A stretch of 64,000 nucleotides of DNA from the NCBI GenBank assembly GCA_000091205.1, contig AP006491.2; one strand, written 5' to 3'. The notes under the pieces were generated by a model that was not told where the DNA came from, did no database searches, and was given only the letters and a program-made list of their open reading frames with translations. Below, one piece after another: positions 1 through 64,000 of the stretch. The DNA is from Cyanidioschyzon merolae. Lineage: Eukaryota. Position numbers and translations under genes: made by a program. Within the stretch, counting starts at the first letter, position 1; each line of letters opens with the position of its first letter.

Positions 1-702
1 TGAGCGAGGTGACGAGCCGCGGAGCCGACATTGAAGCTTTTCGGGAGTCCATGGAAGGTCCGCGTTGCTCATTGGGATACGCTGTGGGAAGAGTACACCA
101 AGCGCCGGTGGGCTCGTCTGCGTAAGAATCTGTATTGTGGTAAGCAACGTGCATTTGCCAACTTTTTCAATGCGTTGAGCGCCCTCAAGGAGAATGAAAG
201 TCAGAGGCTCGTCGTAGCGTACGGAGCAGAGCGCTGGGCGTCCAAAAAAGGGACTACACCAGCTCCGTCGACAAGAACGTACAAGGAGTGCGCACGGCGT
301 TTCGCTACGATACCTGTAGACGAGTTCCGAACATCGTATACACACCACGAACTGGGGTGTACGCATCACAGAGTGGAGATGGAAACGTGCCAGAGGAGTC
401 CTGAGGATATAAAAAAATACGGAGCGCTGATGGAGGGGCAAATGGAAAGGAGGGCGAAATTTAGCGGATTGCTTGCATTAGTAAGTACACTCAATGATGG
501 CAAGAAACGGATGGAATTCGTGAACAGAGACTTTCACGCAGTGATCAATGTAAGATGTGCGGTAATGGAGAAAAGGCCTCGATACTGGACACGAGAGAAC
601 TTTGTTGGACAACCTCTCAAAGTGGAACTATATAAGAAAAAGCTGGAAGCAGTAATGGGTGGCCGGTCCAAAAAAACTGGGAGGCGTCAGCACATCAGTT
701 AG
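1..702 (+). CDS. TnpB-like (Fanzor-type) RuvC nuclease, copy A, 5'-truncated by window edge. It reads in frame 3 to nt 121, has a 58-nt intron at 122-179, then frame 1 from 180 to 702 (stop).
   Basis: C-terminal half has TnpB hallmarks: '[20 protein letters not shown]' (TSQ.C..CG-like zinc finger region) and '[20 protein letters not shown]' (RuvC-III D.NAA.NI-like motif). It is ~97% identical to the 54355-55347(-) ORF. The upstream frame ([20 protein letters not shown]...) matches the C-terminus of the 55253-56173(-) ORF. Confidence 0.6.
122..179 (+). other. Candidate spliceosomal intron (58 nt) in Fanzor-like gene copy A.
   Basis: Donor G|GTAAGA at 122, polypyrimidine stretch CTTTTTC, acceptor TTGAG| at 179. 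Phase-2 junction GC|C joins the upstream frame to the downstream RuvC-II/Zn/RuvC-III frame exactly. The upstream frame stops at 123-125 if unspliced. Confidence 0.5.
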
Positions 703-752
703 AGACGATTTGTCTAGGGCGCGTTCGCCGCCACTGCTGAACACCGTCGGCG
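600..752 (+). ncRNA. Candidate omega-RNA (reRNA) scaffold region of Fanzor copy A (ORF 3' end to element terminus).
   Basis: In TnpB/Fanzor systems the guide RNA is encoded at the element's 3' end. This segment is conserved even in the otherwise degenerate copy C. Confidence 0.25.
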
Positions 753-878
753 TCGTTCGACTTTTGCAAAGTGTTCGGTATCGGTGTCGGTGACGGTGTC
801 GGTGCGGTGTGCGTTTCAGTTGCTGCCCTGCGCTTTCGAGCATCAGCTTATATAACTCTGTGCACACGTGAACTGCCA

Positions 879-2917: not shown

Positions 2918-3080
2918 CATAGGTAATGTAACTTGGAAGTCGGGGATTTGATGGATACCTCACCGTGCACTGAAAAAAAACACACAAAAAAAGTCAGAAA
3001 AGAAAAAGCGCACCATCGGAGAACGCCGGCCTAAGCAAACGTCTCGTCCGTGGAAGCGAAATCGATCCCGCACCAGCGTC
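2918..3080 (+). repeat. Interspersed repeat family R1, copy A (partial, 3' portion).
   Basis: 'GGTAATGTAACTTGGAAGTCGGGGATTTGATGGATACCTCACCGTGCACTGAAAAAAAACACACAAAAAAAGTCAGAAAAGAAAAAGCGCACCATCGGAGAACGCCGGC' matches 9017-9125, 57905-58075 and the reverse complement of 39560-39700. Confidence 0.5.
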
Positions 3081-8829: not shown

Positions 8830-9165
8830 CGCTGCGCTGCGCGTTTGCATCGGGTGCTGATCCTCGAGCCGACGCCCTCTGTGGTATAGAAAAGCTGTTC
8901 TTGCTCAATGAAGTATCTGCTCCAGCGGCTAAGTTCCCAAGGCGGATGATTAGGTTAGGTACTAGGCACACACGACAGGACGTACGAAACGACCAGAATA
9001 TCCGAGAAGAAGTATAGGTAATGGAACTTGGAGGTAGGGCGTTTGATAGATACTCCACCTCGCACTGAAAAAATAACACAAAAAAGTTTGAAAAGAAAAA
9101 TGCGCATCATCGGAGAACGCTGGCACAAGTAAACGTTTTGTCCATGAAAAACATCCGGTGCTGAT
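8830..9165 (+). repeat. Interspersed repeat family R1, copy B.
   Basis: 'CCTCGAGCCGACGCCCTCTGTGGTAT...GTACGAAACGACCAGAATATCCGAGAAGAAGTATAGGTAATGGAACTTGGAGG...CACTGAAAAAATAACACAAAAAAGTTTGAAAAGAAAAATGCGCATCATCGGAGAACGC' aligns to the copies at 2918, 16030, 39520(-) and 57590. Confidence 0.55.
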
Positions 9166-11605: not shown

Positions 11606-12010
11606 GTGCGTTCGTTTTTGAAGGACAAAAACCCAAGGGAAAGGCATGCACATGTTAGTCAGGGATCCTGGCGGGTCGATGTCGCGGGCTACCAGGAAAA
11701 ACGACAAAATTCTCTTCTCGCCTACCATCGAGCGAAGATGCGCAAGTATCCGAGAAGAATAGGGGATATAGGCAATGAAACGTACTTGCCCGAAAGTATG
11801 ACGACGAGACTGCAGTGGCACAGAGGGCACGAATTCGAGGACTCCTTTCATCGGTGAGTTCCACCAGCGGCAATAAACGCATGGAGTTCGTGAACCGAGA
11901 CTTTAACACCGCCATCAATATCAGACGATGTGTGGTGCTGAAAATTAGGACCGACCGGCTGACGAGAGCGAATCTCCTGGGCTAGCCCCTCAGATTCGAA
12001 GTGCACACGG
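11606..12010 (+). pseudogene. Degenerate remnant of a Fanzor/TnpB-like gene (RuvC-II to RuvC-III region only, stop-interrupted).
   Basis: Translation gives 'RVDVAGYQEKR' (cf. '[11 protein letters not shown]') and '[49 protein letters not shown]' (cf. copy A '[49 protein letters not shown]'). It lies in a low-GC island at 10.7-12.1 kb. Confidence 0.5.
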
Positions 12011-16029: not shown

Positions 16030-16345
16030 TCCGTCCCATTAAAGTCAGACTTGGATGTTTGAAGAAACGAGTAGGTGAGCGTGTGAGCGCTGGTCCAATA
16101 GCATGCGTTCGCTTCGCGCTCCCGCAGGCAGTAGGTCTGTCTGCGCAACTCGCAGGCTCCCAGAATGACAATGAATCCCGACCCTGTGCCGAATAAGGCA
16201 CGCCTCCAGCCGACACCCTCTATGGTATGAGAGAGCCGCTCTGCTGCCGTGCCACACCTGCACCAGCGATAAAAGCGCTCTGGTGGATACTAGCGACAGG
16301 CACTCGGCCTCAGAACAGCACCTATAAAACGACCAGTACACCCGC
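16030..16345 (+). repeat. Interspersed repeat family R1, copy C (5' portion).
   Basis: 'TTCGCGCTCCCGCAGGCAGTAGGTCTGTCTGCGCA...CCCAGAATGACAA...GAAACGACCAGTACA' matches 57660-57900 (copy E). Confidence 0.5.
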
Positions 16346-16734
16346 AAGCAGGTCCAAGTCAACGCTCTTTAAAATAGAGCGAAGCATGATGGGCGCGCTC
16401 AGTGCTTTCGATGTCCATCCCGCACAATCTGGGATCTATGGTTCATAGGAACGTTGAATCAAAATAGAACAAAAAGACTAAAACTGCCCACGATGAACGC
16501 TCCGATCTCGTCGGAGGCACGGCCGGGTGTCGTGCCGCGAGGTGCGTGCTCGCGGCGCCGCGCCGTGCGCTCGCGGCTCGACGCGGCCTGGATCTGCAGC
16601 CGCTGGATTCGCGGAAGACTTTGCACTGTAGGCGTGTGCAGCCGCAGGGAGTTGTGTGTGTGTGCTTGTGTCTGCGCGTGCGAACACCTTCTTGTTCAGA
16701 CTTTGACACTTACTTAGCTTGAGCGTTTTCCAGC

Positions 16735-31856: not shown

Positions 31857-34800
31857 TTAGGGTGCCTGTTCGCCAGGGGGCATATCCTGCTGGGGCTCTA
31901 TAGCCATATCGGTATCTGCAGCGGTATCACCGGGATCAACATCAGCAGCGGCTGTATCAGGAGCAGCATCAGCGGTATCACCGGTTTCAGTAGCAGGTGT
32001 ATCAGGAGCAGCATCAGCCGTCTCAACATCAGCAGCAGTGGTATCAGTAGCAGCTGTATCAGGAGCAGCATCAGTATCGGCGGTATCAGGAGCAGTATCG
32101 GGAGACGTTTCCTCTGGACCTGAACCGCTCGCTGACACTTCCAGTGGATCCGGAGCAGATTCCATGGCTGGTGCTTCCGCGTCCACACCAGCAGCATTTG
32201 AATCACCAGCAGGCTCTGGGGCAGCTTCTGAAACATCTTGTGGTGCACTGGCCTCCGTCCGAGCATCTGCTGCGGGCGTTCCTGGTGCTGATGCCTCACT
32301 AGTCTCCGGCTCGAGCGCAGGAGGCGCGTCCGTAGGCGTCTGCTCCGGTGCCTGCGCTGACTCCTGCGTGCGCTCATTCTCCACTGATCCAAAAGAGGCA
32401 CAGTGCTGAACCATTAGGACAGCCGAATACGGTTCCATGTGGAAAGGCATCGATACGCAGGTCATCGAGGTTTCGACGTCCTCGGGGAAACCGCTCGCTC
32501 CAGCCAGCGCGAAACAGTCCATCGGTGCAGGTGCCGCTGTATTGAAGAGCACCGCCCAGCCTGACTTGCCGTCGGCAAAACGGGGGGCAGTGATATCGCA
32601 CGCTTCGTGTGAGGCGTTAAAAGCGATGTAAAGGTGGCGACCTTGCAGTGCTGGTGCCCGTGCACCACGTATTACAAACGCCAAAAAGTTGTTCGGATTT
32701 TCCCAGTTCAGGGGACAAGCGGAGGTGTCCGCCAATGGCTCCTCTGAGCTCGTGTCATCATCACGCTCGCCTACGGAGCCAAGGGCATTGCAGAGTACCG
32801 CTGCCGAGGCGTCCGTGCCACACCAAACAAAGTCGCCGCGAGACTCGGAGAGAAAGCGGCGCCAAATGGGGGCAGTCAGCTTGCGAAAGTGCACCAGCGT
32901 ACTCACAAAGCGGAAAAGGGAACGAGCTTCACCGGACTCGGATGCCAACGCATTCCAGTGGAGATAATTGAGCTCATTATCCTGACACCACACGTTGGAG
33001 TTGCCACGCTGGGTGTGGCCGATTTCATCCCCGCTGCGGATCATAGGGACTCGGGCACTGCACAGCAGTATGAGGAAAAAGTTGCGCTCCTGACGACGTC
33101 GCAGACGCAGCACGTTCTCATCGTCGGTCTCGCCCTCGACACCACAGTTCCAGCTGAGATTGTGTTTCTCGCCGTCGCGGTTGTCTTCGCCGTTTGCCCA
33201 GTTTTGGGCATCGTTATAGGACACAAGATCGCGGAGGCTCATCCCGTCATGGCAGGTGATAAAGTTGATCCCGTACGCGTGGCCGTTCTCCTGGAGACCC
33301 CGCCGAATCTCCGCCGGAACATTCCCTCCGTAGATGTCCTCGGAGCCGCAAATCCGGGTGGCCATCTCTTGGATCATGCCGGTGTCGCCCTTGATGAACT
33401 TTCGTACGCAATCGCGGTACTTGCCATTCCAGTCGGACCAGCTGGGTCCAAATTGTGCGAAATGCCCCACGACGTAAGCGCTGAGGTCCCATGGTTCTGC
33501 AATGAAGAGCACGTCTGAGAGGGCGCTATCGTTCTTCAACGCTTGAATGACTGCTGGGAATTCCATGAGATCGAAAGGAGGCACCGTGGAGCGGAGAAGG
33601 CATGCTGCCAAGTCAAAGCGAAACCCATCGACTTGCATATCGTTTGCCCAGAAACGCACGCAATCATGAATGACCTCAATGCCTGCCAAAGAGTTGCAAG
33701 CGAACGTGTGGCCGCACCCAGAAAAGTTCACATCGTTACCATGATCGTGCAGATAGTACTCTCGATTCGCGAGTGCCCTAAAGTGGTAGGTCTTCCACGT
33801 CTCGGCGGTGTGATTGAAAACAATGTCGAGAATGACGGCGATGCCAGCACGGTGCAGTTCGCGTACCATGGTGCGAAACTCATCCAGAACATGGCGGTAG
33901 CGGTACGCTCTTGCCCACTTTCGGCGCGCAGCTTCCGAGGTGGCCGCCCCAATCACCGAGAAACGGTTCATAGGTGCGAAGAATGCAACCGTCGAGTAGC
34001 CCCAGTACTGGCAGAGATCTTCCCCAGTGGAAGGGTTCTTCTTCTGCCACTCCAGCTCATTGAACTCGAAGATAGGCAAAAACTCGACGCAGTTGATGCC
34101 AAGCGCTTTCAAGTACGGAATTTTTTCGATCACCGCGGTAAAGGTTCCTCGGGGGCTGCGGATATCCTTCGCCATTGCCGTAAACGAGCGCACATGGACC
34201 TCGTAGATAACCATGTCGCTGGCTGGTATGTTGGGCTTTCGCACGCCTTGCCAATCGAATCCGCTCAGGTAGTCGAGTGGAGGTATCACCGCAAAAGGAG
34301 TGTACTTATTTTTGCGCTTCTCTCTGGCATGAAAATCATAATACAGCGGTGAGTCAATGATGCGTGCGAAAGGATCGAGCACTATCTGCGCACCCTTGCC
34401 GCGACCTACGCGCCATGCGTACCGGTACCCAGCCAGAAGCGGTTGCACCGCCACGTGCCAGACTTTACCCATTCGGTTTTTCCGAGGATCAAGGCGCAGC
34501 TCGACGCAAGAGTCCAGTGCAAGCACTGCAAACCCACTGCTGTCGTCGTTAGGCGGCTCGAGGTTCTTGTCGTCGCCGGCTTCAGCGTCTTCGGGAATAG
34601 CTTCGAGCGCACCGCTGCCTGCAGCGAGCGCACTTCCCTCGGGATGATATATGATCAGAGACATGTGCCGCTGCTCAGTGCTGTAGATCGCAAAGTTGAC
34701 AGTGTTTGCATCGAGCGGGTGACACCCGTACGGACTCGGTTTGCCTCGGAGGACGCGGCTAAGCCAGGGCGCTCCAGTGAGCGACTTGCGCGACTCAAGA

Positions 34801-34892: not shown

Positions 34893-35139
34893 GAATCTAC
34901 CACGTGGTCCAAAAGTGTTCCGAAGAGCGTTTGTAGCGACACCCGCTGTGCTACGGGAACGGTTAGCTAATGCCCCCCAACCGATAGGCTACGGCAGTGA
35001 GGATCGCGGCACCACCAGCAGCAGCAGCCGTTACGCCAAAAAACGCTTAGCAGATGCTTTACTCGGCGGTCGGCTGTGCGTACGGCGCAGCGCACGTGCA
35101 CGTGCGGTGCCCGTGAGGCCGTCGAATGCGTCGATTGCG

Positions 35140-35468
35140 CTGATGCTGCTGCTGCTGCTGCTGCTGATGCTGCTGCTGATGCTGATGATGCTTTCGGAGG
35201 TGGCGCTCATTGCCGCCTCCGCTTTGCGATTTAGCCGATCTCCCGTGCAAGGTGGCGCTGCTGCTGCTGATGATGCTGCTGCTGCTGATGATGATGCTGA
35301 AGATGCTTTCGGAGGTGGCGCTCATTGCAGCCTCCGCTTTGCGATTTAGCCGATCTCCCGTGCAAGGTGGCGCTGCTGCAGCAGCTGCTGCTGATGATGA
35401 TGCTTTCGGAGGTGGCGCTCATTGCCGCCTCCGCTTTGCGATTTAGCCGATCTCCCGTGCAAGGTGGC

Positions 35469-35499
<31 letters not shown>

Positions 35500-35568
35500 A
35501 TGCTTTCGGAGGTGGCGCTCATTGCCGCCTCCGCTTTGCGATTTAGCCGATCTCCCGTGCAAGGTGGC

Positions 35569-35599
<31 letters not shown>

Positions 35600-35610
35600 A
35601 TGCTACGTTC
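35140..35610. repeat. Tandem array (4 units of ~96-116 bp) containing (GCT)n/(GAT)n tracts and a conserved 9-bp-stem hairpin; ~250 bp upstream of the isoamylase start.
   Basis: Unit 'GATGCTTTCGGAGGTGGCGCTCATTGCCGCCTCCGCTTTGCGATTTAGCCGATCTCCCGTGCAAGGTGGCGCTGCTGCTG...' starts at ~35187, 35303, 35399 and 35499. Confidence 0.75.
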
Positions 35611-36825
35611 GATGTTCGTTCTAATTCTAATATGTCGCTGCAGGGTAGGCGTACGTTCATGGAGCGAAGCGATGCAGGCTAGTAATAAGGATCGTGTACT
35701 GGATATCTTGGAGTTTGTACGCTGGTGTTGAAACTTGTACGTGACTTTCATTGTTGTTCTCTATGAGAGTAACTGCGAGGCGATCTGATGGCATTCGATA
35801 CGGCAATGCAGCTGTTCCTGGATGAAAAGCAGTTCCGCTGGTATCTCGCTCGATAGCACTGGCGGATCAGATGCGTCCTCGTAAGCGCGTCACGGGATAC
35901 GTCCACGCGCTGCTTCTTTCATTGGTACGGGGAAACGCCTGGGTTCTCTCACGCCTTGGTTTCTTCTATGATAAAACGAGCGCTTTCGTTTCTACGACGC
36001 TTTGCACGCACTTATCACTGGACTGCACGGCCCGTACCCTCTGCGCGTCCAAGCTCGACACTGTAACGTATCCAAGACGCAGTACGGATGGTGCACACTG
36101 CCCGTGCTAGTGCGTCCCTATTGCAAAGCGTCGGGGCAGATGGCTGCCCAGCGGCCTGGCAGCGGGCCGCAAGCGTACGCTTTCCTCCTGGAAGACTCGG
36201 GGATGTTGTATCACGAACGAGCGCCCCAGAGCTGCCTCCATTCCCAGACACCGACTAGTGTGGTATCGAAAACGTTCTCTTCCAGTGGTTTTCTTCGCCG
36301 CTGTCGTGCGGATTGCCAACACAGTGGTTCACGAGAAGGAGCACGCCTTCTGCCGGGTGCCGAACCCCGAGCACGCTGCCGTGCGCAGCATCGTTCCGTG
36401 TGGATGCAACCATACCGGAGACTGCTAGCACGCATCGACTACTGTTCATGAGGCGCTGTCTAGGAAGATGCCATTGATAAGGCGCACAAAACAGGAATTC
36501 GCATGGCGCTCGCGACACTCTCCTGTGTTCTGCAGACTTGAGCCCAGCGCATGTCCAGTACGTTTCCGCTGCATATGGAGCGCACTGCAGCCATCAGGCG
36601 TCAGTTGCGATGCCGTGCAGGACGCTTGTACAGGATAAATGCAATTGAGGCTCAACCATGGCGTGTATTTGAAAACATAATCAGGAGGCAACGACGTTGA
36701 CATCTGTGTGCAAGAGCCCCCAGGGTAAGGCTCAGTTCCGGCATTGGCGGCCCCGGGGCACGGCGGACAATGGCCGTACGCATTCGGTTTGGAGTGTTTT
36801 ACTGGTAAAGGTGCTGGGGTGACTG

Positions 36826-37027
36826 CTTTAGACTTGCTGGACACCCGGTACAGAGCCTATTGGAAAAGCCGTGCTTTCTAACGTTTGTCAGCTTGATCAA
36901 TCGTTGGGAAGCGCTGCTTCACCTGCCTTAGACTTGCTGGACATCCGGTACGGAGTCCTTTGGGAAGCCGTGCTTTCTACCGTTTGTCAGCTTGATCACT
37001 TGTCGGCAAGCGCTGGTTCAACTCCCT
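36826..37027. repeat. Two tandem ~101-bp direct repeats ~100 bp upstream of the PheRS-alpha start.
   Basis: 'CTTAGACTTGCTGGACACCCGGTACAGAGCC...GCCGTGCTTTCTAACGTTTGTCAGCTTGATCAATCGTTGGGAAGCGCTG' is repeated with ~88% identity. Confidence 0.55.
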
Positions 37028-37124
37028 GAGACTCACTCCGCAACGGAACAGGCCTTTGTGCACAACCCAGACTTCCAGGATTCCGCAGTGTGAACAAGCA
37101 ACGTCGGGTTCAGCAGCGCTCAAA

Positions 37125-39519: not shown

Positions 39520-39900
39520 TTCGCGCACGCGTGATCGATTTTTTTTCATGGACAAAACGTTAACTTAGGGCAGCGTACTCCGATTATGCGCATTTTTCTT
39601 TTGTTACTTTTTTTTTTTGTGTTTTTTCAGTGCGAGGTGAGGTATTCATCAACCGCCTACCTTCATGTTACATTACCTATACTTCGTCTCGGATATTCTG
39701 GTCGTTTCATACGTCCTATCGTGTGCCTAGTGCCTGGCGAAAGCGACAGCAATAGCGCCTATAGCGCCGGTGCGGTCGCTGCACGGAGACAGAACGGCGT
39801 TGCCGTACCACAAAGGGCGTCGGCTCGAGGCGTGGTTCACTCGACGTAGAATCGGGTCTCGTCGTCAGTTTGTGCTCGGAGAGTCTGCGGATGCAGGCTT
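39520..39900 (-). repeat. Interspersed repeat family R1, copy D (inverted orientation).
   Basis: The reverse complement of 39560-39720 reads 'AGGACGTATGAAACGACCAGAATATCCGAGACGAAGTATAGGTAATGTAACATGAAGGTAGGCGGTTGATGAATACCTCACCTCGCACTGAAAAAA...', matching copies B and E. Confidence 0.55.
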
Positions 39901-48640: not shown

Positions 48641-50320
48641 GTGTTCTACGTTCGTCGGACACTGGCGTATACACCGGCTCCCGCCGTTGTTCCCATGGTC
48701 GTTGGCAGCGTTGTTGCCCTAGCGCTGGTTGGGCTGCTGTGGCTAGCGCTTTGTCGTCAGCTGGTAGAGTCGGAACCGAGGCAGGTGGCCGCCTCCGACA
48801 GTTCCCGGGCATCGTTCGGCTTCCTACACCCGTCCTGTGCCGGTGGCGGCGGCGGGGAACGCGTCCTCTGGTGCGCAGTTCGAGCACTGTGCAGCGAAAC
48901 CCGTCGACTAGCGAGCGACAGACCACAGAACGGCTCGACACCGCATAGCACGATCGTCGCTCCCCGCGTTTGGCTTTATACTGCTCGCTATCGTTCCAGT
49001 GTCGCCGAGATTCGTGCTTTTCTGGACGTGCGGCTCGCCGAGCAGTTCGGTGCAGAGGCTTTCACGAATGCTGTCCAGCAAGTGAGACTGGTGCCTCTGT
49101 ACACTGCTGTATTGCTGGAGCCTCGTTGGTATCCTTATTTTACCATGCTCTTTCAGTTGCTTGCCGGGATGCCGGTTGCTGTGGAGATCATGCTGCGGCA
49201 CGCGTCTTTCCTGGTCACGCACCTGTTGAGCAAGTGCGTCAGCTGGTTTCGGAAACGCTACCGAACGCCCTTAGAGGATTACAGGCTGCCGTCGATCTTC
49301 CTAGATACAGTGGGCGTCCCGCTTGCTCTGCTGTGTCTCAAGTGGTGGACTTGTGGGCGTATCCGCACCGGCGCCTATGTTCATTATCCATTCGTGTCGA
49401 ACGAGATGATGTCTCATGAGCCGAGGAGCACCGGCTCCGGCTCGCGCAAGCTACGCTCTGTATGTCGTCGCGGGTACTATCGCGCTGTTGTGCTACCGCT
49501 TTATGCGGCGTGCGGGGCGGCCACGGATCTCGTGATGGCGAACTCATCGTGGACACTGCAGCGAATGGAGCAGTTATGGTGCGGGAGCGGTGCTAGTAGT
49601 TCGCGTGCGTCCTGTACAGGGCATCATCGTCGAAATATCTTCCTCGTGTACCCGCCGTGCGGTGCAAGGCGGACGCACTCGTCATTTCCTGCGCTAGAGA
49701 GGGACGCAGTGCGCCAGCGCGTCGTCTCCATTGCTCAGTTTCGCCCCGAAAAGCGCCATGAGACTCAGCTGGATTGCTTTGTGGAGTTATTGCAGCGGTA
49801 TCCCCGGGAGACCTCACAAGCGCGTTTGCTCATGATTGGTGGTGCTCGCAACCATGCCGATCGAATGCGGGCCGAGCGTTTGCTCCAGCGAGCTGTAGCG
49901 CTCACAGGATCCGCCTCTAGCGGCGGCCGTATCGAGGTTCACGTGAATGCAAGTCGCATCGAGATCGAAGAGGTACTAGCTGGAGAATTTGGATGCTTTT
50001 TACATACCATGGAGGAGGAGCATTTTGGAATCAGCATTGTGGAGGCGATGTCGCATGGGCTACTCGTGATTGCTCACGGATCCGGCGGTGCAGCACTGGA
50101 TATTCTGCGTCCCGTTTCGCCCGACTCGCCTCTGGGGCTTGTGTATCGCACTCGACATGAGCTCACTGAATGCCTGGCAGACGCTCTATTTCGGTTGCCG
50201 GTGGCGACGCTTCAATCAATGCAGAGGCGGGCCTACGCACGAGCTCAGCGCGAATTCTCAGATGAGGCATTCTCTGAGCGATTTCTTACGGCGGTCGCTT
50301 CCCTTTGTACGAAGGGGTGA
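48641..50320 (+). CDS. ALG11: ALG11 GDP-Man:Man3GlcNAc2-PP-dolichol alpha-1,2-mannosyltransferase (GT4).
   Basis: N-terminal TM helix, then 'FGFLHPSCAGGGGGERVLW' (ALG11 signature), and C-terminal GT4 'EEHFGISIVEAMSHGLLVIAHGSGG'. Confidence 0.85.
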   Translation: MFYVRRTLAYTPAPAVVPMVVGSVVALALVGLLWLALCRQLVESEPRQVAASDSSRASFGFLHPSCAGGGGGERVLWCAVRALCSETRRLASDRPQNGSTPHSTIVAPRVWLYTARYRSSVAEIRAFLDVRLAEQFGAEAFTNAVQQVRLVPLYTAVLLEPRWYPYFTMLFQLLAGMPVAVEIMLRHASFLVTHLLSKCVSWFRKRYRTPLEDYRLPSIFLDTVGVPLALLCLKWWTCGRIRTGAYVHYPFVSNEMMSHEPRSTGSGSRKLRSVCRRGYYRAVVLPLYAACGAATDLVMANSSWTLQRMEQLWCGSGASSSRASCTGHHRRNIFLVYPPCGARRTHSSFPALERDAVRQRVVSIAQFRPEKRHETQLDCFVELLQRYPRETSQARLLMIGGARNHADRMRAERLLQRAVALTGSASSGGRIEVHVNASRIEIEEVLAGEFGCFLHTMEEEHFGISIVEAMSHGLLVIAHGSGGAALDILRPVSPDSPLGLVYRTRHELTECLADALFRLPVATLQSMQRRAYARAQREFSDEAFSERFLTAVASLCTKG

Positions 50321-50323
50321 TCC

Positions 50324-50359
<36 letters not shown>

Positions 50360-50362
50360 CAA
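50321..50362. repeat. (GCT)n microsatellite immediately 3' of the ALG11 stop.
   Basis: GCTGCTGCTGCTGCTGCTGCTGCTGCTGCC read directly. Confidence 0.8.
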
Positions 50363-50673
50363 CAACAACAGCCCTTGCACCACCATGAATGCATGATCAA
50401 AAGATGTCATGGTACGTTTTGTCGGATAAACAACAGTTTTCTTGCCGAGCAAGGCGACAACATCCACCAACACGAGCGACTGGGTTTGAGTGCGGCGCAT
50501 GCCGCTGTGCTCGCTCGGAAACCTGGACGCTGACCCTTCACGGGCTAGATCACGATCTTTGTACGCACCAGGACGCGAGTCTTCAGGACGACGGCACGGT
50601 GCACGTTCCGTTGTCGCGCGTGGGCGCCACCACAGTCGCAAGCACAGGCCTGCTACCCCGTGGCGTTTCGATC

Positions 50674-54354: not shown

Positions 54355-56173
54355 TCAGGGGCGCTCCCCAGAACACATCACAACGAGTGCGCACGCTGCT
54401 AATGCGAGAACGCGCACAAACCCCAGCCACCCGACACGCTGTGTATATAATAGGGACAAACATTTTGTCCGCAGCGTAAGCACTATATACTGAACTGAAA
54501 GAAAGAGTTGGTAAACTTCGTTCACGCACCGCGCAGTGTCGTAGTCACCGGCCGAAATGAAGCTCGTAAGAAACGAATGAATGGAGGGCTGTAGCTCGCA
54601 CGGCCGGCGGCGGTGGCTCGCACGGCCGCCGACGGTGTTCAGCAGTGGCGGCGAACGCGCCTTAGACAAATCGTCTCCACCTGATGTGCAGACGCCTCCC
54701 AGTTTTTTGGACCGGCCACCCACTACTGCTTCCAGCTTTTTCTTATATAGTTCCACTTTGGTAGGTTGTCCAACAAAGTTCTCTCGTGTCCAGTCTGGAG
54801 GCCTTTTCTCCATTACCGCACATCTTACATTGATCACTGCGTGAAAGTCTCTGTTCACGAATTCCATCCGTTTCTTGCCATCATTGAGTGTACTTACTAA
54901 TGCAAGCAATCCTCTAAATTTCGCCCTCCTTTCCATTTGCCCCTCCATCAGCGCTCCGTATTTTTTTATATCCTCAGGACTCCTCTGGCACTTTTCCATC
55001 CCCACTCTGTGATGCGTACACCCCAGTTCGTGGTGTGTATACGATGTTCGGAACTCGTCTACAGGTATCGTAGCGAAACGCCGTGCGCACTCCTTGTACG
55101 TTCTTGTCGACGGAGCTGGTGTAGTCCCTTTTTTGGACGCCCAGCGCTCTGCTCCGTACGCTACGACGAGCCTCTGACTTTCATTCTCCTTGAGGGCGCT
55201 CAACGCATTGAAAAAGTTGGCAAATGCACGCAGCTTACCACAATACAGATTCTTACGCAGACGAGCCCACCGGCGCTTGGTGTACTCTTCCCACAGCGTA
55301 TCCCAATGAGCAACGCGGACCTTCCATGGACTCCCGAAAAGCTTCAAAGTCCGCTCCTTGACTCGTCACCTCGCTCAAAGCTTCTAGGTGATCCTTCATT
55401 CCTGAATTCCAGCTCTCGATTTTCTTCCCCGCATTCATGATTCCCGATTCTCGATAGTATCTAGCTCTCGAGAACCTCAATAGACGCATGTCTTTCTGAC
55501 GTAAACTACCGTCAGTACCATCTTCCGCACACTTCGGTGCTGCGATGGTGATGATATTTGTGTTTCCGGGGTCCGCGCCAACGACAAAGTCGATATCTTG
55601 CACTTTCTGCGTCGCAGGAGCCGCCTTGTTGTTATCTTCATGCTTCGTCGCGTCAACGACCAGGTCGTTATCCTCCACCTCCTGCATCGCAGGATTCGCC
55701 TTCTTCTTCTCTTCATGCTTCCCCGCGTCAACGACAAGGTCGTTATCCCCCACTTCCTGCGTCATAAGACCCGCCTCCTTCTCATTTCCTTCCTTCGCCG
55801 CGTCAACGAGAAAGTCATTATCCTCCAACTCGTGCGTCTCTGGATCCTCCTCTTTGTTTTCTTCGTTCTTGGTCACGGGCGTAGCCGAGGGCGGACCAGG
55901 ACGATCTGTCTTCAAGCGCCGATAGTGTACACACATGGCTACTCCATCGGTTTCGATCATCCCAGTGAATATCTTTTGTTTGCTCACTCTCAGGCGTTTG
56001 AAATTGAAGATGTTCTTTAAGTACGTCTCCCGGTTTTCACCGGAGAATTCTTCCCTGCTGACACTGAATTCGGGACTGATCTCCTTCATGATGCCGTAAA
56101 GGACTCTGGAGTCGATGGTCACAAAATGTGACTTGATATTGGACATCGGAATCACGTTAAAGCGCTTCCCCAT
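54355..56173 (-). CDS. TnpB-like (Fanzor-type) RuvC nuclease, copy B. Exon 1 is 56173-55257, the intron 55256-55199 and exon 2 55198-54355.
   Basis: RuvC-I '[18 protein letters not shown]', RuvC-II-region '[11 protein letters not shown]', zinc-finger region '[28 protein letters not shown]', RuvC-III '[20 protein letters not shown]'. The same GTAAGA/TTGAG intron as copy A joins the two ORFs. A 1-bp change in an A-run relative to copy A moves the stop from the 54676-equivalent to 54355. Confidence 0.6.
54628..54800 (-). ncRNA. Candidate omega-RNA scaffold region at the 3' end of Fanzor copy B.
   Basis: Same conserved 3' terminal block as copies A and C. The adjacent flank (54600-54627) would supply the guide if the element works like TnpB/Fanzor. 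Confidence 0.25.
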
Positions 56174-56199
56174 TAGGAAAGCCTTCCGTCTCTCCTACT

Positions 56200-57104
56200 C
56201 TTCATTTGTCTTTTCGCTCAGCTTCATCTCCGCTTCGCGTTCGAGCTCCGGGTCCAAGAACACAAAATACCGTACGACGATGCGATAGTATCTCCCCTGA
56301 TCCTTTTTCAACTCTGATATCTTTTCTGTTGGATTCACCAGCCCCAAGATTGCACGGCGCTCTTGTATAACCGAACGGATGAGGGAATTCTCATTTGTGC
56401 TCCTGCGTGACGTCTTCTTGTCGACAAATTCGACCTCATCTCCATTCTTACGATCTTTCGTAAAGCCATTGGTAATCGCCTATATTCATTTGAGAGAGCT
56501 GCCTGGGTAGAGTGCAAAAACGGCGCGTACCATGAAACGTTCGAGTTTCACGATCACGTGATTCTCCAGTTTCGTGATGTACTTCGTCGCCCCTTATATG
56601 TAAACATTCGAATCACCCCTGTATGGAGTACTGTTGAAGCTGTAGAGGGGATGTTTTTCGTAAAGGCCATGCACTAGCACATTTTCCCTCCGCGTTTCCG
56701 CTGTGCCAAGCATCAGGTGTCGAATAAATGTCTTACCGAAAAAATCGTCCGGAATCTCGACCGTTTCCAAGTGCGCCACGTTTTCGTACATCTCTCTCGC
56801 CAAATGCATCAGTCTTGACGACGCCTTGAAAATACTCATGGAGTACGAATCGAAACGTTTTTCGATAGCGTCTCACAAATTTTCCCTGTAAGGATGGTTG
56901 ATATGTTTAAGAAGACGGGCTTTCACCAGCATCTCGTCGAACAGTCGTCTTTCTTGCCGCCTTCGACTTAGGGCCTCCCCTTTTGCTTCTTCTTCTTTTC
57001 CTGTTCTTCTGGACTCGGCTCTGTTTTTTGTTTTTATTTCTGGCAGCAGGCGACCCTGGACCTACAGAATCGTCGACTTGCTTTTTCATAGCTTTTCTTT
57101 TCAT
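56200..57104 (-). pseudogene. N-terminal region of the copy B Fanzor gene (K/R-rich NLS-like segment plus putative WED-like domain), interrupted by in-frame stops.
   Basis: 'MKRKAMKKQ...RNKNKKQSRVQKNRKRRRSKRGGPKSK' (56907-57104). Downstream, '...FMVRAVFALYPGSSLK*I*AITNG...' is homologous to the continuous 164-aa ORF of copy C (62119-62613, 'FMIRVAFVLYPGIFREAMLAIIDG'). Confidence 0.4.
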
Positions 57105-57589
57105 TTTTTTTGTGTGAAAAAGAACGCTCTTTGAACCCTTCTATTATATACTGCGAGAAATCAATTGAATATGTTTACTTGAGGGTAGAGACACAATCGA
57201 ACTGGAAACTATGATTTGTTACGACTTCCACGCAAATACAGCTTGCCCGTTAGAACATCAAGAAAACGTGTCGTCACGGTCGCGTTTCTCTTCGAAGGCG
57301 ACAGATGCGTCGTGTCTCGTAAGTGCCATACTTGGAGATGCACGTATCGAGCGCGCCATACAGGAAAAAGGACAGTGACCTACGATTTACAAGAAACGAT
57401 ATAAAATTTTTTCCCGCTCTACGATAAGCGTTTAAGGGGAAATAGATCGCCGTACTATCGGAAGCTTATGTTCGAGGCGGAAGGTCCCGCGAGCCGGTCG
57501 AGTCTACCGGGCTAGAGCTCGGTATGCCTCTAAAGTGGCCGCTGCCGCTGCTGCCGCTGCTGCTGCAAGACCTGCGTAGCTCGTTCGCA

Positions 57590-58095
57590 ACGCATTTTAT
57601 CCTGAGACTATGCACAGGACGCTGCGTTGGGCCTCGCCCTGGTCGCAGTGGAATCCTAGTACAGCACTTCGCGCTGTCGCAGGTAGTAGGTCTGTCTGCG
57701 CATTTTGCATGTTCCCAGAATGACAAATAGCCCTGATTCCGGTTCAGGTGAATCATTCCTCGAGCGGACGCCCTTAGTGGTATGGCAAAGCCGTTCTGTC
57801 TCTGTACAGCACCTGCTTGAGCGGTATAAGCGCTACAGCGGGTGCTCACAACAGGCTCGGCGCTCGATAGAACATACGAAACGACCAGTATATCAGAGAG
57901 GTAGTATGGATAATGGGACTTGAGGACAGGTGCACTATGATCGAGATATCCCCGGAAGCCATCGTGCGTTCCGAATTCTGGGATGCATGGGCAATGCAAA
58001 CGTTCTTTCATCGAAAAGAAAAAAACGCTCCGGAGGCGGACTCGTCATCGAGACGCGCATCGCTCTGGATCGAATCTCCGGAAGGCGCTTCTGGG
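57590..58095 (+). repeat. Interspersed repeat family R1, copy E (longest, ~0.5 kb), abutting the 5' side of Fanzor element copy B.
   Basis: Aligns to copy C over its 5' half ('GCAGGTAGTAGGTCTGTCTGCGCA...CCCAGAATGACAA') and to copies A, B and D over its 3' half ('...ACGAAACGACCAGTATATCAGAGAGGTAGTATGGATAATGGGACTTGAGG...GAAAAGAAAAAAACGCTCCGGAGGCGGAC'). Confidence 0.55.
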
Positions 58096-59479: not shown

Positions 59480-60644
59480 GCATGTTGCCTGTGCGTGGTA
59501 ACGCGTTGGATGCGGATCGTTTACAGGGACGTTAATCAAATGCCTCGTCGAAGTGCGGGCTCTGCACAAGCGTGCTCGGTCTGTACTCAAAATAAGCGGA
59601 TGGACAAGGAGGACTGAGATATGCTGGATACCTATGCCAAACTGGTAGGTCTTGGCAACGTACAAAAGGTGTGGAGGGGAGCGTCCGTAACCATCTCGGC
59701 GAGCTTGTTCCAAATGGACAGCATTGCTGAAGGACAAGGTGGCACCAGAATTGCAGCTGCAGAGTAGCGTTCGCCTACTATCATCATTGAAACCTGCTAG
59801 TCGTGTCATGGATACCGGACGTGATGGAGTTCGCATCCGCCACAGCGAACAAGGATCAAATCAACTGACTCAAAATTCTCCAAAGCGATGCGTGGATGAA
59901 AGCTGGCGAAAGTTGCGGGTCTGGTACGGCATAACGTACGCTTACCCGGATGCCGATATGCATCGCGCCTGGCCCGAGATACCCTGGTTCAGGTCAACCA
60001 TTCTAAACCGCAGGATAAAAGTATGCCATGATTTAACGTTCACTGATGTTGGCTGGACGGCATCGCAACGCTCCACGAACCTGGGCGCGGCGCCGAAGGC
60101 TTAGTTTCCGAGTATGACCGTGACAGACTTTGCTCTATGCGTACGGATCTGGAAAACACGAGCCGGAAGTGTGCACCAGCACGCATGGGCGACGAATAAA
60201 ACCCTTAAAGCGACGTACGAACAGTGACCTAACGATGCAAGTGGAACGAACCGAATACCCTGAGGAAGGTATGATGGCACAGCTTCTGCCTTGAGAGCGG
60301 GTGCACAAGCGCTTCAGTGCGGTAGAGGCGAAATCGTGCCGAAACGCCCGATTCGCGTCAGCGCTTCCAGTGACCAGGAATGTGCCTCCAGCTTCTCTGA
60401 CGTTCCTCTCGCGTCCCAGCAATTCTGGTACAAAGTTTCGCTCTATGCAGCACAGGCGCTGATGCAGCGCTCCTTCGGAAGCCCTGCCTTCCGCAAACTT
60501 GCACCGAAACGTTCCGTACGCAGCTATTGTGGTTATGCTTCAAAAGCAGAACGGTATTGCAGTGTCTTGGAAGCGTCGGCTCGAGCTTCTGAGGCCGAAA
60601 CGTCTCGGACGACCGCCGCACCCGACGACAACAAACATCTTTCA

Positions 60645-62831
60645 AAACAAAAACGTTGCTGCCGGCAGTGTACAGTAGTGGCGGCAACCGTGCCCTAGAC
60701 AAGAAGTCGCCAACTGACGTGCAGACGCCTTCCCGTCTTTTCCGACCTGCCACCTACTGTGGGTACCATTTGTTCTCATATAGTTGCAGTTCAAGAGGTT
60801 GTCCAACAATGGACTCTCGTGTCACCGCTGGGAGTCTTTTGTCCATTCCCGCACATCTCCGTAGATTGATTGCAGCGTTAAGGACTCGGTTCACGAACTC
60901 CATACGTTTCTTGCGGTTGATAGTCGTACTTACTAGTGCAAATAGTCCACGAGCTTTCCCCCTCCTTTCCATTTGCTCTCCGGTCAGCTGTCCCTTACTT
61001 TTTTATATCATGACGACTCCGCTGGCACTTTTTCCCTCTCCACCCTCTGAAGAGTATATCCCAACTCGTCGTGTGTAACGATGTTCGGAACTCACCCACA
61101 GGTAACGTAGCGAGACCCAGTGCGCACTCCTTGCCCATTCCTGCCGTTGGAGCTGGTGTAGTCCTTTTTTTTTCGGAGCCCAGCTCCCTACACCATATGA
61201 ATCAACGAGCCTCTGACTTGATTCTCTTTCAAGGCGTTCAATCGATTGAAAAAGCTCGCGAATGCGTGATGCTTACCACGGCACAGATTCATACGCAAAC
61301 GAGGCCACCGGGGCTTTGTATACTCGCCCTACAGCGCCACGGAATGAGCAACACGAACTTCCATGAATTTCAGAAAAGCTTGAATGTCCGCTCGTCAGCT
61401 CGTCACCACGCTCAAAGCCTCCAGGTGATCCTTCATTCCTACATTCCACGTAACCATCTTCTTCCTTGCATTCATTATACCGGATTCTCGATAGTATCTC
61501 TCTCTCTCGAAAACCTCAGCAGAAGCATATGTTTGTGGCGTAAGGTGCCGTCAGTGCAATCTTCCCTTCGCTTGTGAACAGCGATGGTTATGATATTCGT
61601 GCACCAGGGACTAAGGCCGACGCCAAAGTGGTTTTCATGGGGCTTATACGTTCCATAGCCCGTCAACCTGTGTTCGTTCTTCGGCAACGCCCGTAAAGAA
61701 GACGGGATAGGACGAGCTGCCTTCAACCGCTGATGGTGTACACATATGTGCGCCACATCGAGATCGATTGTTCCAGTGAATAACCTTTTTTTGGCCGGTT
61801 CGGGACGCTTGAAATCGAAGATATTCTTCTAGTAGGCGTCCCGATCTTCACCGGAGACCTATTTGTTGATTACATCGAGCTATGGATAGATCTCTATCCT
61901 GAAGATGCAAAAGGACTATGGGGTCGATATTCACAAAATGTGACTTGAACGCGCATAACCGACCGACATTGAAGCGCATCTGGAGAAGACTTCAATGTCG
62001 TTTCTCGCACTCGTCTTTTTTTCCACACTCAGCTCCATGCCGACCCTGCGGTCGAGGTCTCGGACCGAAAACATGGAGCAGGGCAGGATGAGAGAGTAAC
62101 AACTCTCTCCGTCGTTTCTCATATCCGAGAGTTTTCTCTTGGGCTGACATGACCCAAGACCGAACGATGTTTTAGAATAGTGGCGCGAATTACAGGAGCA
62201 TCATTCATTATCCTGCGTGATGTCCTCTTGTCGACGAGTCTGATCTCCTGTTCATGCTGGCGATCGTTCTTCATACCATCGATGATTGCAAGCATCGCTT
62301 CGCGAAATATGCCCGGGTACAGCACAAAGGCGACGCGTATCATGAAACAATCGAGGTTTGCCATTTTATGGTTCCTCATATTCGTGAGGCACCTCTTTGC
62401 CCTGTAGTCGTAAATGTCTGCGTCACCCTTGTGTCCAGCACCGAAGACGAGGAATTTGGCGTAATTCTTGAGGAAGGCATGCCCTCGCTCACTTATCCCC
62501 GATGTTTTCCCATTAAAAACAATCAGGTAGTTGATAAAAGTCTTTTGGAAAAATTTTTCCGGAAACATCACTTTCGCGATAAGCGTTACGTCCCGATGCA
62601 GGTCGCTGTCCAAATGCCAACGTCCTAAAGAAAAGCTCCAAACATACCCGGCCTACGATCCGCCACGGTTTCTGATAGCGTCTCGCAACAATCAGTCGTA
62701 CGGATCATTGATATGTTGGAGAAGATAAGATTCCACCACCATCTTGTCGTACAGAAGTCACAATTTCGGCCTTCGATGTAAGGCCCCCCATGTTGCTTCT
62801 TCTTCTTTTCCTGACCCTCTTCGCTAGGCAA
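60645..62831 (-). pseudogene. Fanzor/TnpB-like gene of copy C, pseudogenised. It lacks the 3 extra tandem repeats seen upstream of RuvC-I in copy B.
   Basis: Homologous segments lie in different frames and carry stops. The RuvC-I aspartate context is degraded to 'GLSPW'. Confidence 0.5.
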
Positions 62832-63310
62832 TATGTCTCATTTCATTCTGACATCCGGCAGCACCGGCCACCCCAAACCCACTACATCATACTACATAAG
62901 TGTCAGATTTTTTGGGAGAACATCTCATTGGACGCTTCTGCTTTGAACGGCGAGAATCTGGTGAATAGAGTTACTTTAAGATTGGAACGCCACTGAAGCC
63001 AAAACTATACTTTGCTACGATTCGATCGCAAATACAAGTGGCCCCGATAGAGCAGTCGCTCCAGAAGAGGTCATTACCGCGTTTTTCTTGATCGGAGAGG
63101 CGCACGTTGGGTGACGTGACGGCCAGATTTCGCGATGCGTTACCAGGACGCACGACAGAGAAAATGCAAAAAAATTAACCAATATGCACAAACAGGATAG
63201 CAAGTACTATTGCAACCTAGTGTAAACGTAAAGAAGATGATTTCGCGTATGGTCAAAGTGTTACATTTAATCGGGAGGTCTGCGTGCCGCGAGACTACCG
63301 GCCTGCCCTC
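60645..63310 (-). mobile_element. Fanzor/TnpB-carrying mobile element, copy C (degenerate, multiple frame disruptions).
   Basis: Fragments 'RMEFVNRVLNAAINLRRC' (60754-60972), 'GLSPWCTNIITIA' (RuvC-I remnant, 61475-61756), 'RFNVGRLCAFKSHFVNIDP', an intact 164-aa N-terminal-domain ORF (62119-62613) and the K-rich 'GQEKKKKQHGGPY' segment (62625-62831). The 3' terminal ~100 nt are conserved with copies A and B. Confidence 0.55.
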
Positions 63311-64000
63311 CGTGTGACTTTCAGTGGAGAGTGATATGAGACACTTGGGCAACTCATCCAAAACGCAATTAATTTCGGGACTAGGAGCAGGCATGCTGCG
63401 TCTGAGCACTAACACCGTCGCGGTGAACAGATAGTACGCCGTTTTACGCTACCGCATGCAAATCGTCTGCAAGATCCGCTTGGAGGCTCCAAAGAAAATA
63501 AATCTCCCTGATACCATGTAGCATGAACCAAGCCCCTTCCAACGCGCCCAGTGGTATGTCTGAGCTGCCCTGCTTCCGGAGTGCACCCACAGCGGCGATA
63601 GAGAGGCTACAACGGGTGCTCAAGGTAGGTAAACGGCGCACGATAGAAAGTCAGATACAATCAGTACAGCCGAGATCAGGTAAATGCGACGAAAAGTACC
63701 GAAACTGTTCAGCGTGACGAAATATTTTCCGAAACAAATATCGATCCGGCAATCTCGGCGTCTGGTCAGTAAAAAAGGTTCTGCCGAAACAAACAAAAGC
63801 AAAGCGCTGGAAGGAGATCCATAAGGGCACTGGTGTGCTGGATGTAGATAAGACAGATGCGTATTTGCTCAGATCGTACCGCCGGAAAAAAACCCAAACA
63901 AACCTGGAATCGTAGACATCGCTCTGACAGATGCTTTTGCTCTGAGAACACTGCAGTAATGGGGCATTGCGTCGAATGGGGGAGTGGGGGAAATGGGGGG

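Follow-up and report, generated by a model that had tools for sequence, protein, structure and literature searches.

The question raised by this locus is whether a conserved block at the 3' end of a TnpB/Fanzor-like gene, present three times (copies A, B and C) in a 64,000 nt stretch of Cyanidioschyzon merolae DNA (contig AP006491.2; hereafter 'the window'), is the template of an omega-RNA, the guide RNA of such nucleases. The initial annotation had proposed that the interval 54600-54820 was a non-coding template of this kind, with the guide of each copy taken from its flank. By alignment, the block is identified with the right end (RE) of CMe-1A, a published C. merolae transposon of which the window contains three decayed copies, and this RE probably acts as an omega-RNA template in the active members of the family.

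CMe-1A was described by Bao & Jurka (2013, Mob DNA 4:12, PMC3627910) as an unclassified element with a 3169-bp consensus and about 150 copies, around 80% identical to that consensus, which is without terminal inverted repeats (TIRs) and for which target site duplications (TSDs) were undeterminable; its product is a Fanzor1 of 734 aa encoded in a single exon, and the 5' 635 bp also exist as a separate repeat, TE-N2_CMe (PMC3627910). Both the transposon family and its ends have been known since that paper. When aligned to the published consensus, taken from supplementary file 2 of PMC3627910, the 3' ends of copies A, B and C match at 111/128, 102/114 and 104/120 positions respectively, and the 5' ends of B and C at 50/65 and 46/62, with B extending over 54622-58013 and C over approximately 60623-63789. 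By repeat finding, copy A occupies 1-752 on the plus strand, truncated by the window start, and copies B and C begin at 54627 and 60658 on the minus strand; identity between A and B is 98% over 675 nt and 95% over the final 82 nt (the arms at 671-752 and 54627-54708 being 95% complementary), and that between B and C is around 76-79%. The string quoted in the initial annotation is exact, being the 91 nt at 54628-54718 (minus strand), and the block does occur in all three copies, 95% identical at 662-752 in A and 79% at 60658-60741 in C; its 23-nt core has two matches in the window, against none expected from 100 shuffles. The wider interval of 54600-54820 contains this block, but also includes about 100 nt of ordinary open reading frame (ORF). 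More than 470 related loci were found in Joint Genome Institute (JGI) metagenome contigs; 80 metagenome loci have the same architecture as the window, separate 5' repeat included, and the window RACK1 protein is encoded identically in the same metagenomes as the relatives of the element. The likeness of the three window copies is shown, at the level of alignment, to stem from common descent from one transposon family, the source of which is C. merolae or a very close relative, and the members of which are about 3.2 kb long, lack TIRs and TSDs and carry a single Fanzor1 nuclease gene.

The right ends of the three copies are composed as follows, v1 and v2 denoting sequence versions of a terminal hairpin:

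682-782, plus strand: right end of copy A, with tail codons, a non-coding spacer, CCACTGCTGAACAC at 731-744 and a decayed v1-type hairpin from 745 to about 779.
54627-54697, minus strand: right-end block of copy B, from AGG CGT CTG..., where codon constraint ends, to the point at which A and B split, with the stop position at 54662-54664, a GGCG/CGCC mini-hairpin and CCACTGCTGAACAC.
60623-60730, minus strand: right end of copy C, whose terminal hairpin (60623-60667) is of the v2 type and intact.
54594-54637, minus strand: irregular 3' junction of B, at which a tandem duplication of 22 nt (CACCGTCGGCGGCCGTGCGAGC / CACCGCCGCCGGCCGTGCGAGC, 20/22 identical) takes the place of the terminal hairpin.

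Copies A and B do diverge abruptly, exactly after ...GTCGGCG (752 in A, 54627 in B), as was initially reported, but this is the breakpoint of copy B only and not the terminus of the element: A, C, 60 or more independent copies and the consensus all continue for another 22-38 nt. Across 68 non-redundant 3' ends similarity runs approximately 35 nt past this motif, with 753 to about 782 of A and 60667 to about 60623 of C aligning both with each other and with the independent copies. The published consensus ends ...CACCGCTGGCGGCAGCGTTTTTCTTTTGAAAGGCG, terminal hairpin included, and a pair of 99% identical loci (L018 and L042) diverges 31-33 nt after GTACAC. The consensus can be followed to 771 in A and to 60639 in C, and only to 54622 in B. 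These alignments place the true end of the element 22-38 nt beyond the terminus drawn before, with the exact 3' nucleotide placed to about +/-5 nt; the 68-copy alignment suggests that the element, with the 3' base of its hairpin (...GTTTG or ...GTTGGTG), extends a few nucleotides past the published consensus end.

As the boundary between scaffold and guide had been misplaced by these 22-38 nt, the guides that were named are element sequence: 753-773 in A is the interior of the terminal hairpin, 60620-60644 in C is the 3' arm of the same structure, and 54600-54627 in B lies inside the junction duplication. A scaffold ending at ...GTCGGCG, followed in each copy by a flank-derived guide at these positions, would account for the exact split at that motif of A and B, which are 97-98% identical upstream. 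It is nevertheless very improbable, since 753-782 of A and 60667-60623 of C are common to 60 or more copies and the consensus, B stays on the consensus for 5 further nt before entering a duplication private to it, and the v1 and v2 hairpins are always attached to an RE; the alignments to the other copies and the consensus refute it for A and C. With the boundaries corrected, the proposed start of a guide would shift outwards by about 22-38 nt. The duplication in B (units 54616-54637 and 54594-54615) is absent from 80 related loci and does not fold significantly (z=-1.35); it has the appearance of a duplication at the junction or of a microhomology-mediated rearrangement. Its first unit starts with the element's own CACCGTCGGCG. 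Immediately beyond the end of copy A, the flank at 774-820 consists of successive CGGTG(T/A)-like units (TTCGGTATCGGTGTCGGTGACGGTGTCGGTGCGGTGTG), and in many other copies the hairpin is likewise followed by a GGTG-rich stretch, of differing length; such sequence may be part of the element, a preference in targeting or a product of slippage. Such tails, along with heterogeneous 5' ends, prompted us to consider 5' truncation or retroposition, which found no support without TSDs.

The block is also not the non-coding sequence it was taken to be, as about half of it is coding. The published 734-aa protein and its intact relatives end ...GGRSKKTGRRLHVSWRRFV*, the stop being the TAG of GTCTAGGGCG, equivalent to 715-717 in A and 54662-54664 in B, such that the quoted string opens with ~55 nt of tail codons and has only its last ~35 nt beyond the stop; the stop codon position differs among family copies. 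In an entropy and codon analysis of 65 copies, the ratio of entropy at codon position 3 to that at positions 1-2 was 1.2-4.4 through the ORF and 1.0 from the equivalent of position 682 in A (AGG CGT CTG...). Hence protein-level selection stops about 35 nt before the nominal stop and about 100 nt before the end of the element. The columns of the alignment remain alignable until the end of the hairpin, after which entropy is around 1.8 bits.

The coding sequence upstream of this point is represented in the window by the following features:

54662-56839, minus strand: remnant of the Fanzor1 ORF of copy B, with in-frame stops, a frameshift near 55340 common with copy A, and the RuvC-III motif.
1-702, plus strand: remnant of the Fanzor1 ORF of copy A, cut by the window start and 97-98% identical to that of B, with a premature TAG at 700-702.
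60623-63789, minus strand: copy C as a whole, about 3.15 kb and ~76% identical to B, with a heavily decayed ORF and a TE-N2-like 5' module near 63442-63789.

The initial assignment of these elements to the TnpB/Fanzor type holds. The ORF shows TnpB/Fanzor motifs, including NRDF..INV, and the family consensus, which was inspected for the RuvC D ... E ... RD residues and the zinc-ribbon/TNB region, contains FVNRDFNAAINIR. Single-sequence searches of Pfam, phmmer searches of PDB and a PDB search with a family-only profile gave no match, and Pfam PF07282 was not found in the CMe-1A family itself, so that distant relatives were needed in the profile. A profile search of 1.84 billion proteins retrieved 1250 relatives, many of 600-700 aa; close relatives in metagenome protein sets numbered 234. 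The profile built from the family and the distant relatives found at E<=1e-30 (25 members; PF07282 present in 5/25 distant relatives) matches the solved Fanzor1 structures of Parasitella (PpFz1, 9cf0, E=7.1e-19), Spizellomyces (SpuFz1, 8gkh, E=2e-11) and Guillardia (GtFz1, 9cer, E=0.039). An AlphaFold2 model from an 11-sequence alignment was unusable (predicted local distance difference test score 33.6). On profile similarity, the window elements are classed as TnpB/Fanzor elements of the Fanzor1 group. All three window copies are, judging from their reading frames, dead relics, because of the in-frame stops, the frameshift common to A and B, and a RuvC-III motif that in copy B is mutated relative to the family consensus NRDFNAAINIR; the family, as its codon periodicity indicates, keeps intact Fanzor1 ORFs under purifying selection. 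Positions 1-675 of A and 54703-55377 of B are 98% identical without gaps and have the same frameshift, which argues that an already dead copy was recently duplicated or converted. The ORF of B also contains four in-frame 75-nt tandem repeats (55574-55873), 73-79% identical and encoding acidic 25-aa units, the number of which differs among family members (e.g. P0023 and P0012). An isolated fragment of about 60-70 nt at 11865-11935, standing apart from any other element sequence, is 79-81% identical to the ORF around FVNRDF.

The expectation that a guide RNA is encoded at such right ends agrees with what has been found in characterised Fanzor1 systems, where the right end encodes the omega-RNA, in overlap with the ORF or directly downstream of it (PMC10432273). 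That of SpuFz1 comprises a 75-nt scaffold and a 14-15-nt guide derived from the flank, and that of GtFz1 overlaps 17 codons (PMC10432273); Fanzor1 scaffolds consist of a 7-bp first stem-loop (SL1) and one to three further stem-loops, followed by the guide (PMC11423790). The RE of CMe-1A would correspondingly comprise three parts: the final ~13 codons of the Fanzor1 tail, which are no longer under constraint at the level of protein; the stop and a spacer of about 30 nt, with the GGCG/CGCC mini-hairpin and the motif CCACUACUGUACAC, predicted to be able to pair with the GCAGUAGUGG codons about 90 nt upstream; and a terminal hairpin of 10-16 bp, after which the copies diverge. By analogy with SpuFz1, GtFz1 and PpFz1, active members would transcribe the ~100-135-nt RE as an omega-RNA scaffold, with the terminal hairpin as its guide-proximal stem-loop and a guide read from the next 15-20 nt of host DNA; the same hairpin would probably also be a cis signal for transposition. 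On balance, we consider it likely that active CMe-1A copies make an omega-RNA here, with the hairpin as its last stem-loop and the guide beyond. This reading follows from the position, size and make-up of the RE and from a nuclease ORF under purifying selection: the block spans the last ~13 codons to the end of the element, which is positional evidence. After the terminal hairpin the copies are unrelated, with the boundary placed to +/-~5 nt, and the flank beyond it is a candidate guide. The right-end block of copy B (54627-54697) is a candidate omega-RNA scaffold remnant. Working guide RNAs are unlikely to come from the window copies themselves, given their broken ORFs, the decayed hairpin of A and the replaced hairpin of B. 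For Fanzor1, omega-RNAs from the right end have been on firm ground since 2023, and proposing one for CMe-1A is an expected extrapolation rather than a discovery; the literature library searched contained no paper linking a C. merolae Fanzor to an RNA. What it would add is a candidate scaffold of ~100-135 nt for an intronless Fanzor1 of ~734 aa from a thermo-acidophilic alga.

Several results weigh against an omega-RNA. The conservation that was initially reported for the block does not exceed that of synonymous codon positions, with an entropy of 0.63-0.70 bits in the RE against 0.5-0.84 at synonymous sites, and so the likeness of the copies reflects descent, with no demonstrable extra sequence constraint. 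The structural check initially suggested, covariation across copies, lends no support to a scaffold fold: RNAalifold, on the 120-nt scaffold region of 66 copies, recovers only three invariant GGC/GCC pairs (-2.95 kcal/mol, covariation term -0.04). Helices were also specified by hand, namely a closing helix CAGUAGU/ACUACUG, which joins the E-A-V-V codons and a conserved non-coding motif, an SL1 candidate GGCGUCU/AGACGUU (7-8 bp) and the GGCG/CGCC hairpin. In these 84% of cells pair, compared with 35-63% when the partners are slid, but every covariation measure equals the shuffled mean, and one SL1 pair is broken in 24/64 copies. The long-range helix with the GGUGGCCG codons has 13 double changes where 4.7 are expected (1/500), a weak signal of the size that relatedness alone can give. 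Mutual information (401 columns) was discarded because register shifts and the structure of subfamilies confound its top pairs, which cluster in the spacer and hairpin. Folding of the whole RE does speak for a structured RNA, the 135 nt of the published consensus reaching -56.5 kcal/mol (z=-2.78); the 63-nt non-coding core by itself is not exceptionally stable (z=-0.16), and A and B in the window have z of about -1. Rfam 15 gives no matches at gathering thresholds across the whole window, and around an intact RE, at E<=10, a single chance lncRNA match (E=3.1). Lastly, no target-adjacent motif (TAM) could be derived from the left flanks. Conserved structure with covariation was not found in the RE, and only the terminal hairpin is kept through sequence replacement. 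Taken together, the repeat reported initially is real and belongs to a known transposon, its use as an omega-RNA template is plausible by analogy, and the boundaries first given to it were wrong.

The terminal hairpin, placed outside the element by the initial annotation, is the only part of the RE in which we detect structure-preserving change, and the only part with comparative evidence of selection on structure. The last 45 nt of the copies have a mean minimum free energy of -15.0 kcal/mol, against -9.4 in flanking windows (Mann-Whitney p=1.6e-15), and the antisense strand folds at -9.8 kcal/mol (Wilcoxon p=3e-11), being weaker because several of the pairs are G.U. There are at least three sequence-unrelated versions (z=-6.1, -6.6 and -7.2). 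In the commonest, v1, one pair shows a G-C to U-A exchange, although covariation within it is marginal (33-37/500), which again does not help the case for a structured RNA. Within the window a good hairpin is found only in C (-16.8 kcal/mol, z=-3.96), that of A having decayed (z=0.01) and that of B having been replaced. The idea that the hairpin is a repeated host target was rejected, as 593 kb of sequence contain no v1 or v2 hairpin detached from an RE. Copies A and B differ in hairpin type, A being v1-like and B having a v2-like start, which suggests recombination at the end of the element.

A hairpin on the sense strand only, 60-70 nt beyond the stop codon and with a U5 run in its v2 form, could also belong to an mRNA, the block being a C-terminal tail and 3' untranslated region in which the hairpin serves 3'-end formation or stability, with no guide RNA. 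The elements lie about 100 nt upstream of same-strand host genes, where stopping read-through could matter. However, this leaves unexplained why codon constraint should end ~35 nt before the stop. TnpB omega-RNA is processed from the 3' end of the mRNA, and an mRNA feature is compatible with such processing here rather than opposed to it. As a complete explanation of the block, an mRNA feature is improbable. Copies A and B each end about 100 nt upstream of a same-strand host gene, a RACK1-like ORF (ATG at 879) in the case of A and an S1-domain ORF (54529-53189) in that of B; the same gene-proximal arrangement is seen at locus L001 and in the read-through protein P0014, and there may be an insertion preference for 5' gene-proximal DNA. 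RACK1 look-ups for an empty site returned only contigs broken at the element.

The properties of the hairpin are equally compatible with a role at the level of DNA, and the left end of the element bears on this.

57420-58013, minus strand: 5' module of copy B, TE-N2_CMe, with the start of the CMe-1A consensus aligning at 58013.

Directly 5' of the published consensus start, at 57995-58035 (minus strand) in the window and at the left ends of loci L021, L035, L031 and L048, is the sequence GCGTTTTTTTC...GA(C)AAAACG, which forms a hairpin. This left-end GCGTTTTTTTC hairpin is similar to GCAGCGTTTTTCTTTTGAAAGGCG, the v2 hairpin of the right end, and has the same orientation. The true start of the element may lie around 20 nt before the published one, and its two ends may carry related hairpins. 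The RE block, and chiefly its hairpin, could alternatively consist of cis-acting DNA signals for the mobilising transposase, a hairpin recognised in single-stranded DNA as in IS200/IS605 or Helitron/Helitron2 elements, with no guide RNA at all. The left end, too, carries a terminal hairpin, which reads GCGCTCGGTGAGCGC in copies of the short form and has GCGC...GCGC around another interior in those of the long form, and the GCGTTTTTTTC... sequence before the 5' end of TE-N2 resembles the 5' arm of the RE hairpin in the same orientation. The absence of TIRs (PMC3627910) and TSDs fits as well: in 48 elements the lengths found by a TSD search are no different from those of mismatched flank pairs, 5' and 3' flanks sharing words of at most 8 where the null of mismatched pairs has a mean of 6.0 and a maximum of 10. 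The strand asymmetry of the hairpin suits single-strand recognition as well as it does RNA, covariation in the scaffold is absent, and the other algal carriers of Fanzor1 are Helitron2 elements with hairpins at both ends. Against it, every experimentally tested Fanzor1 has an RE-derived omega-RNA (PMC10432273, PMC11423790), and intact Fanzor1 ORFs under purifying selection are hard to explain without a guide. No HUH/RepHel gene was noticed beside the copies, no systematic search for one having been made. A DNA signal is moreover compatible with an omega-RNA rather than exclusive of it. We regard transposition signals without any guide RNA as a less likely, if serious, alternative to the omega-RNA template.

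In IS200/IS605 elements the two roles coincide, the RE hairpin region lying within an RE that is transcribed as omega-RNA. CMe-1A resembles these in having one-strand hairpins at the left end and RE with neither TIR nor TSD, and it could be a eukaryotic transposon with IS200/IS605-style ends, in which the RE hairpin is both transposition signal and guide-proximal stem-loop of the omega-RNA; this we consider doubtful. Among the genes called at the retrieved loci no Y1 HUH TnpA stood out, no dedicated search having been made. A dual role would explain why pairing survives at least three sequence replacements and, if true, would mean that a Fanzor1 element retains an ancestral single-strand, 'peel-and-paste'-like architecture, or has a novel mobilisation route, in a eukaryotic nucleus. 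Either way, the presence of hairpins at both ends bears on how the unclassified CMe-1A moves. A Helitron2-style asymmetric terminal inverted repeat was sought and rejected, the only common core being the 5-nt CGGTG/CACCG, which is too weak.

The 5' region of CMe-1A exists in several variants, and at related loci a TE-N2-type repeat adjoins the left end in either orientation. Within the window, sequence matching TE-N2_CMe forms a second repeat of at least six copies or fragments, at 8861-9150, 2919-3055, 16112-16370 (plus strand), 39542-39872 (minus strand), 57420-58013 and 63442-63789; at 8861-9150, 16112-16370 and 39542-39872 it occurs without the rest of the element. The window also contains GCT/CTG-rich and ~100-nt tandem repeat arrays at 35110-35620, 31911-32099, 36823-37033 and 50296-50369, which are unrelated to the element and are probably coding low-complexity repeats.

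Among known systems, the Helitron2 carriers of Fanzor1 (CRe-1/2/3 of Chlamydomonas; Bao & Jurka 2013) share with CMe-1A an algal host, hairpins at both termini and heterogeneous 5' regions, but CMe-1A lacks evident short asymmetric terminal inverted repeats and detected variable-length TSDs. IS200/IS605 elements such as ISDra2 are alike in lacking TIRs and TSDs and in having one-strand hairpins near both ends, and their RE doubles as the template of a guide RNA, with the guide coming from the flank; in contrast, the host of CMe-1A is a eukaryote, its protein is a Fanzor1 rather than a TnpB, and no Y1 (HUH) TnpA was noticed, again without a dedicated search, while the similarity of its left and right hairpins is only suggestive. 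With SpuFz1, GtFz1 and PpFz1 it has in common a candidate RNA at the right end, overlapping the 3' end of the ORF as in GtFz1, a scaffold of stem-loops about 75-150 nt long in which a conserved part is followed by variable flank, and proteins related at the profile level, the RNA of CMe-1A being a candidate identified from DNA. The differences are that the 7-bp SL1 of Fanzor1 has in CMe-1A a counterpart, GGCGUCU/AGACGUU, that is only possible in the consensus and is broken in a third of copies, and that SpuFz1 elements possess inverted repeats as well as a TAM, CA/CATA, whereas CMe-1A has no TIR and no readable TAM. The closest comparison is with CMe-1A/TE-N2_CMe as published. Relative to it, the window copies are decayed and the 3' junction of B is rearranged, with nothing essential differing, and the 68-copy alignment suggests at least three sequence versions of the 3' hairpin. 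Both the published element and those of the window are about 3.2 kb long with a single intronless Fanzor1 ORF ending ...GGRSKKTGRRLHVSWRRFV, both lack TIRs and determinable TSDs, and both have a 5' ~600 bp that also occurs on its own as a repeat; identity among copies is ~80%, and those in the window align base by base to the ends of the consensus.

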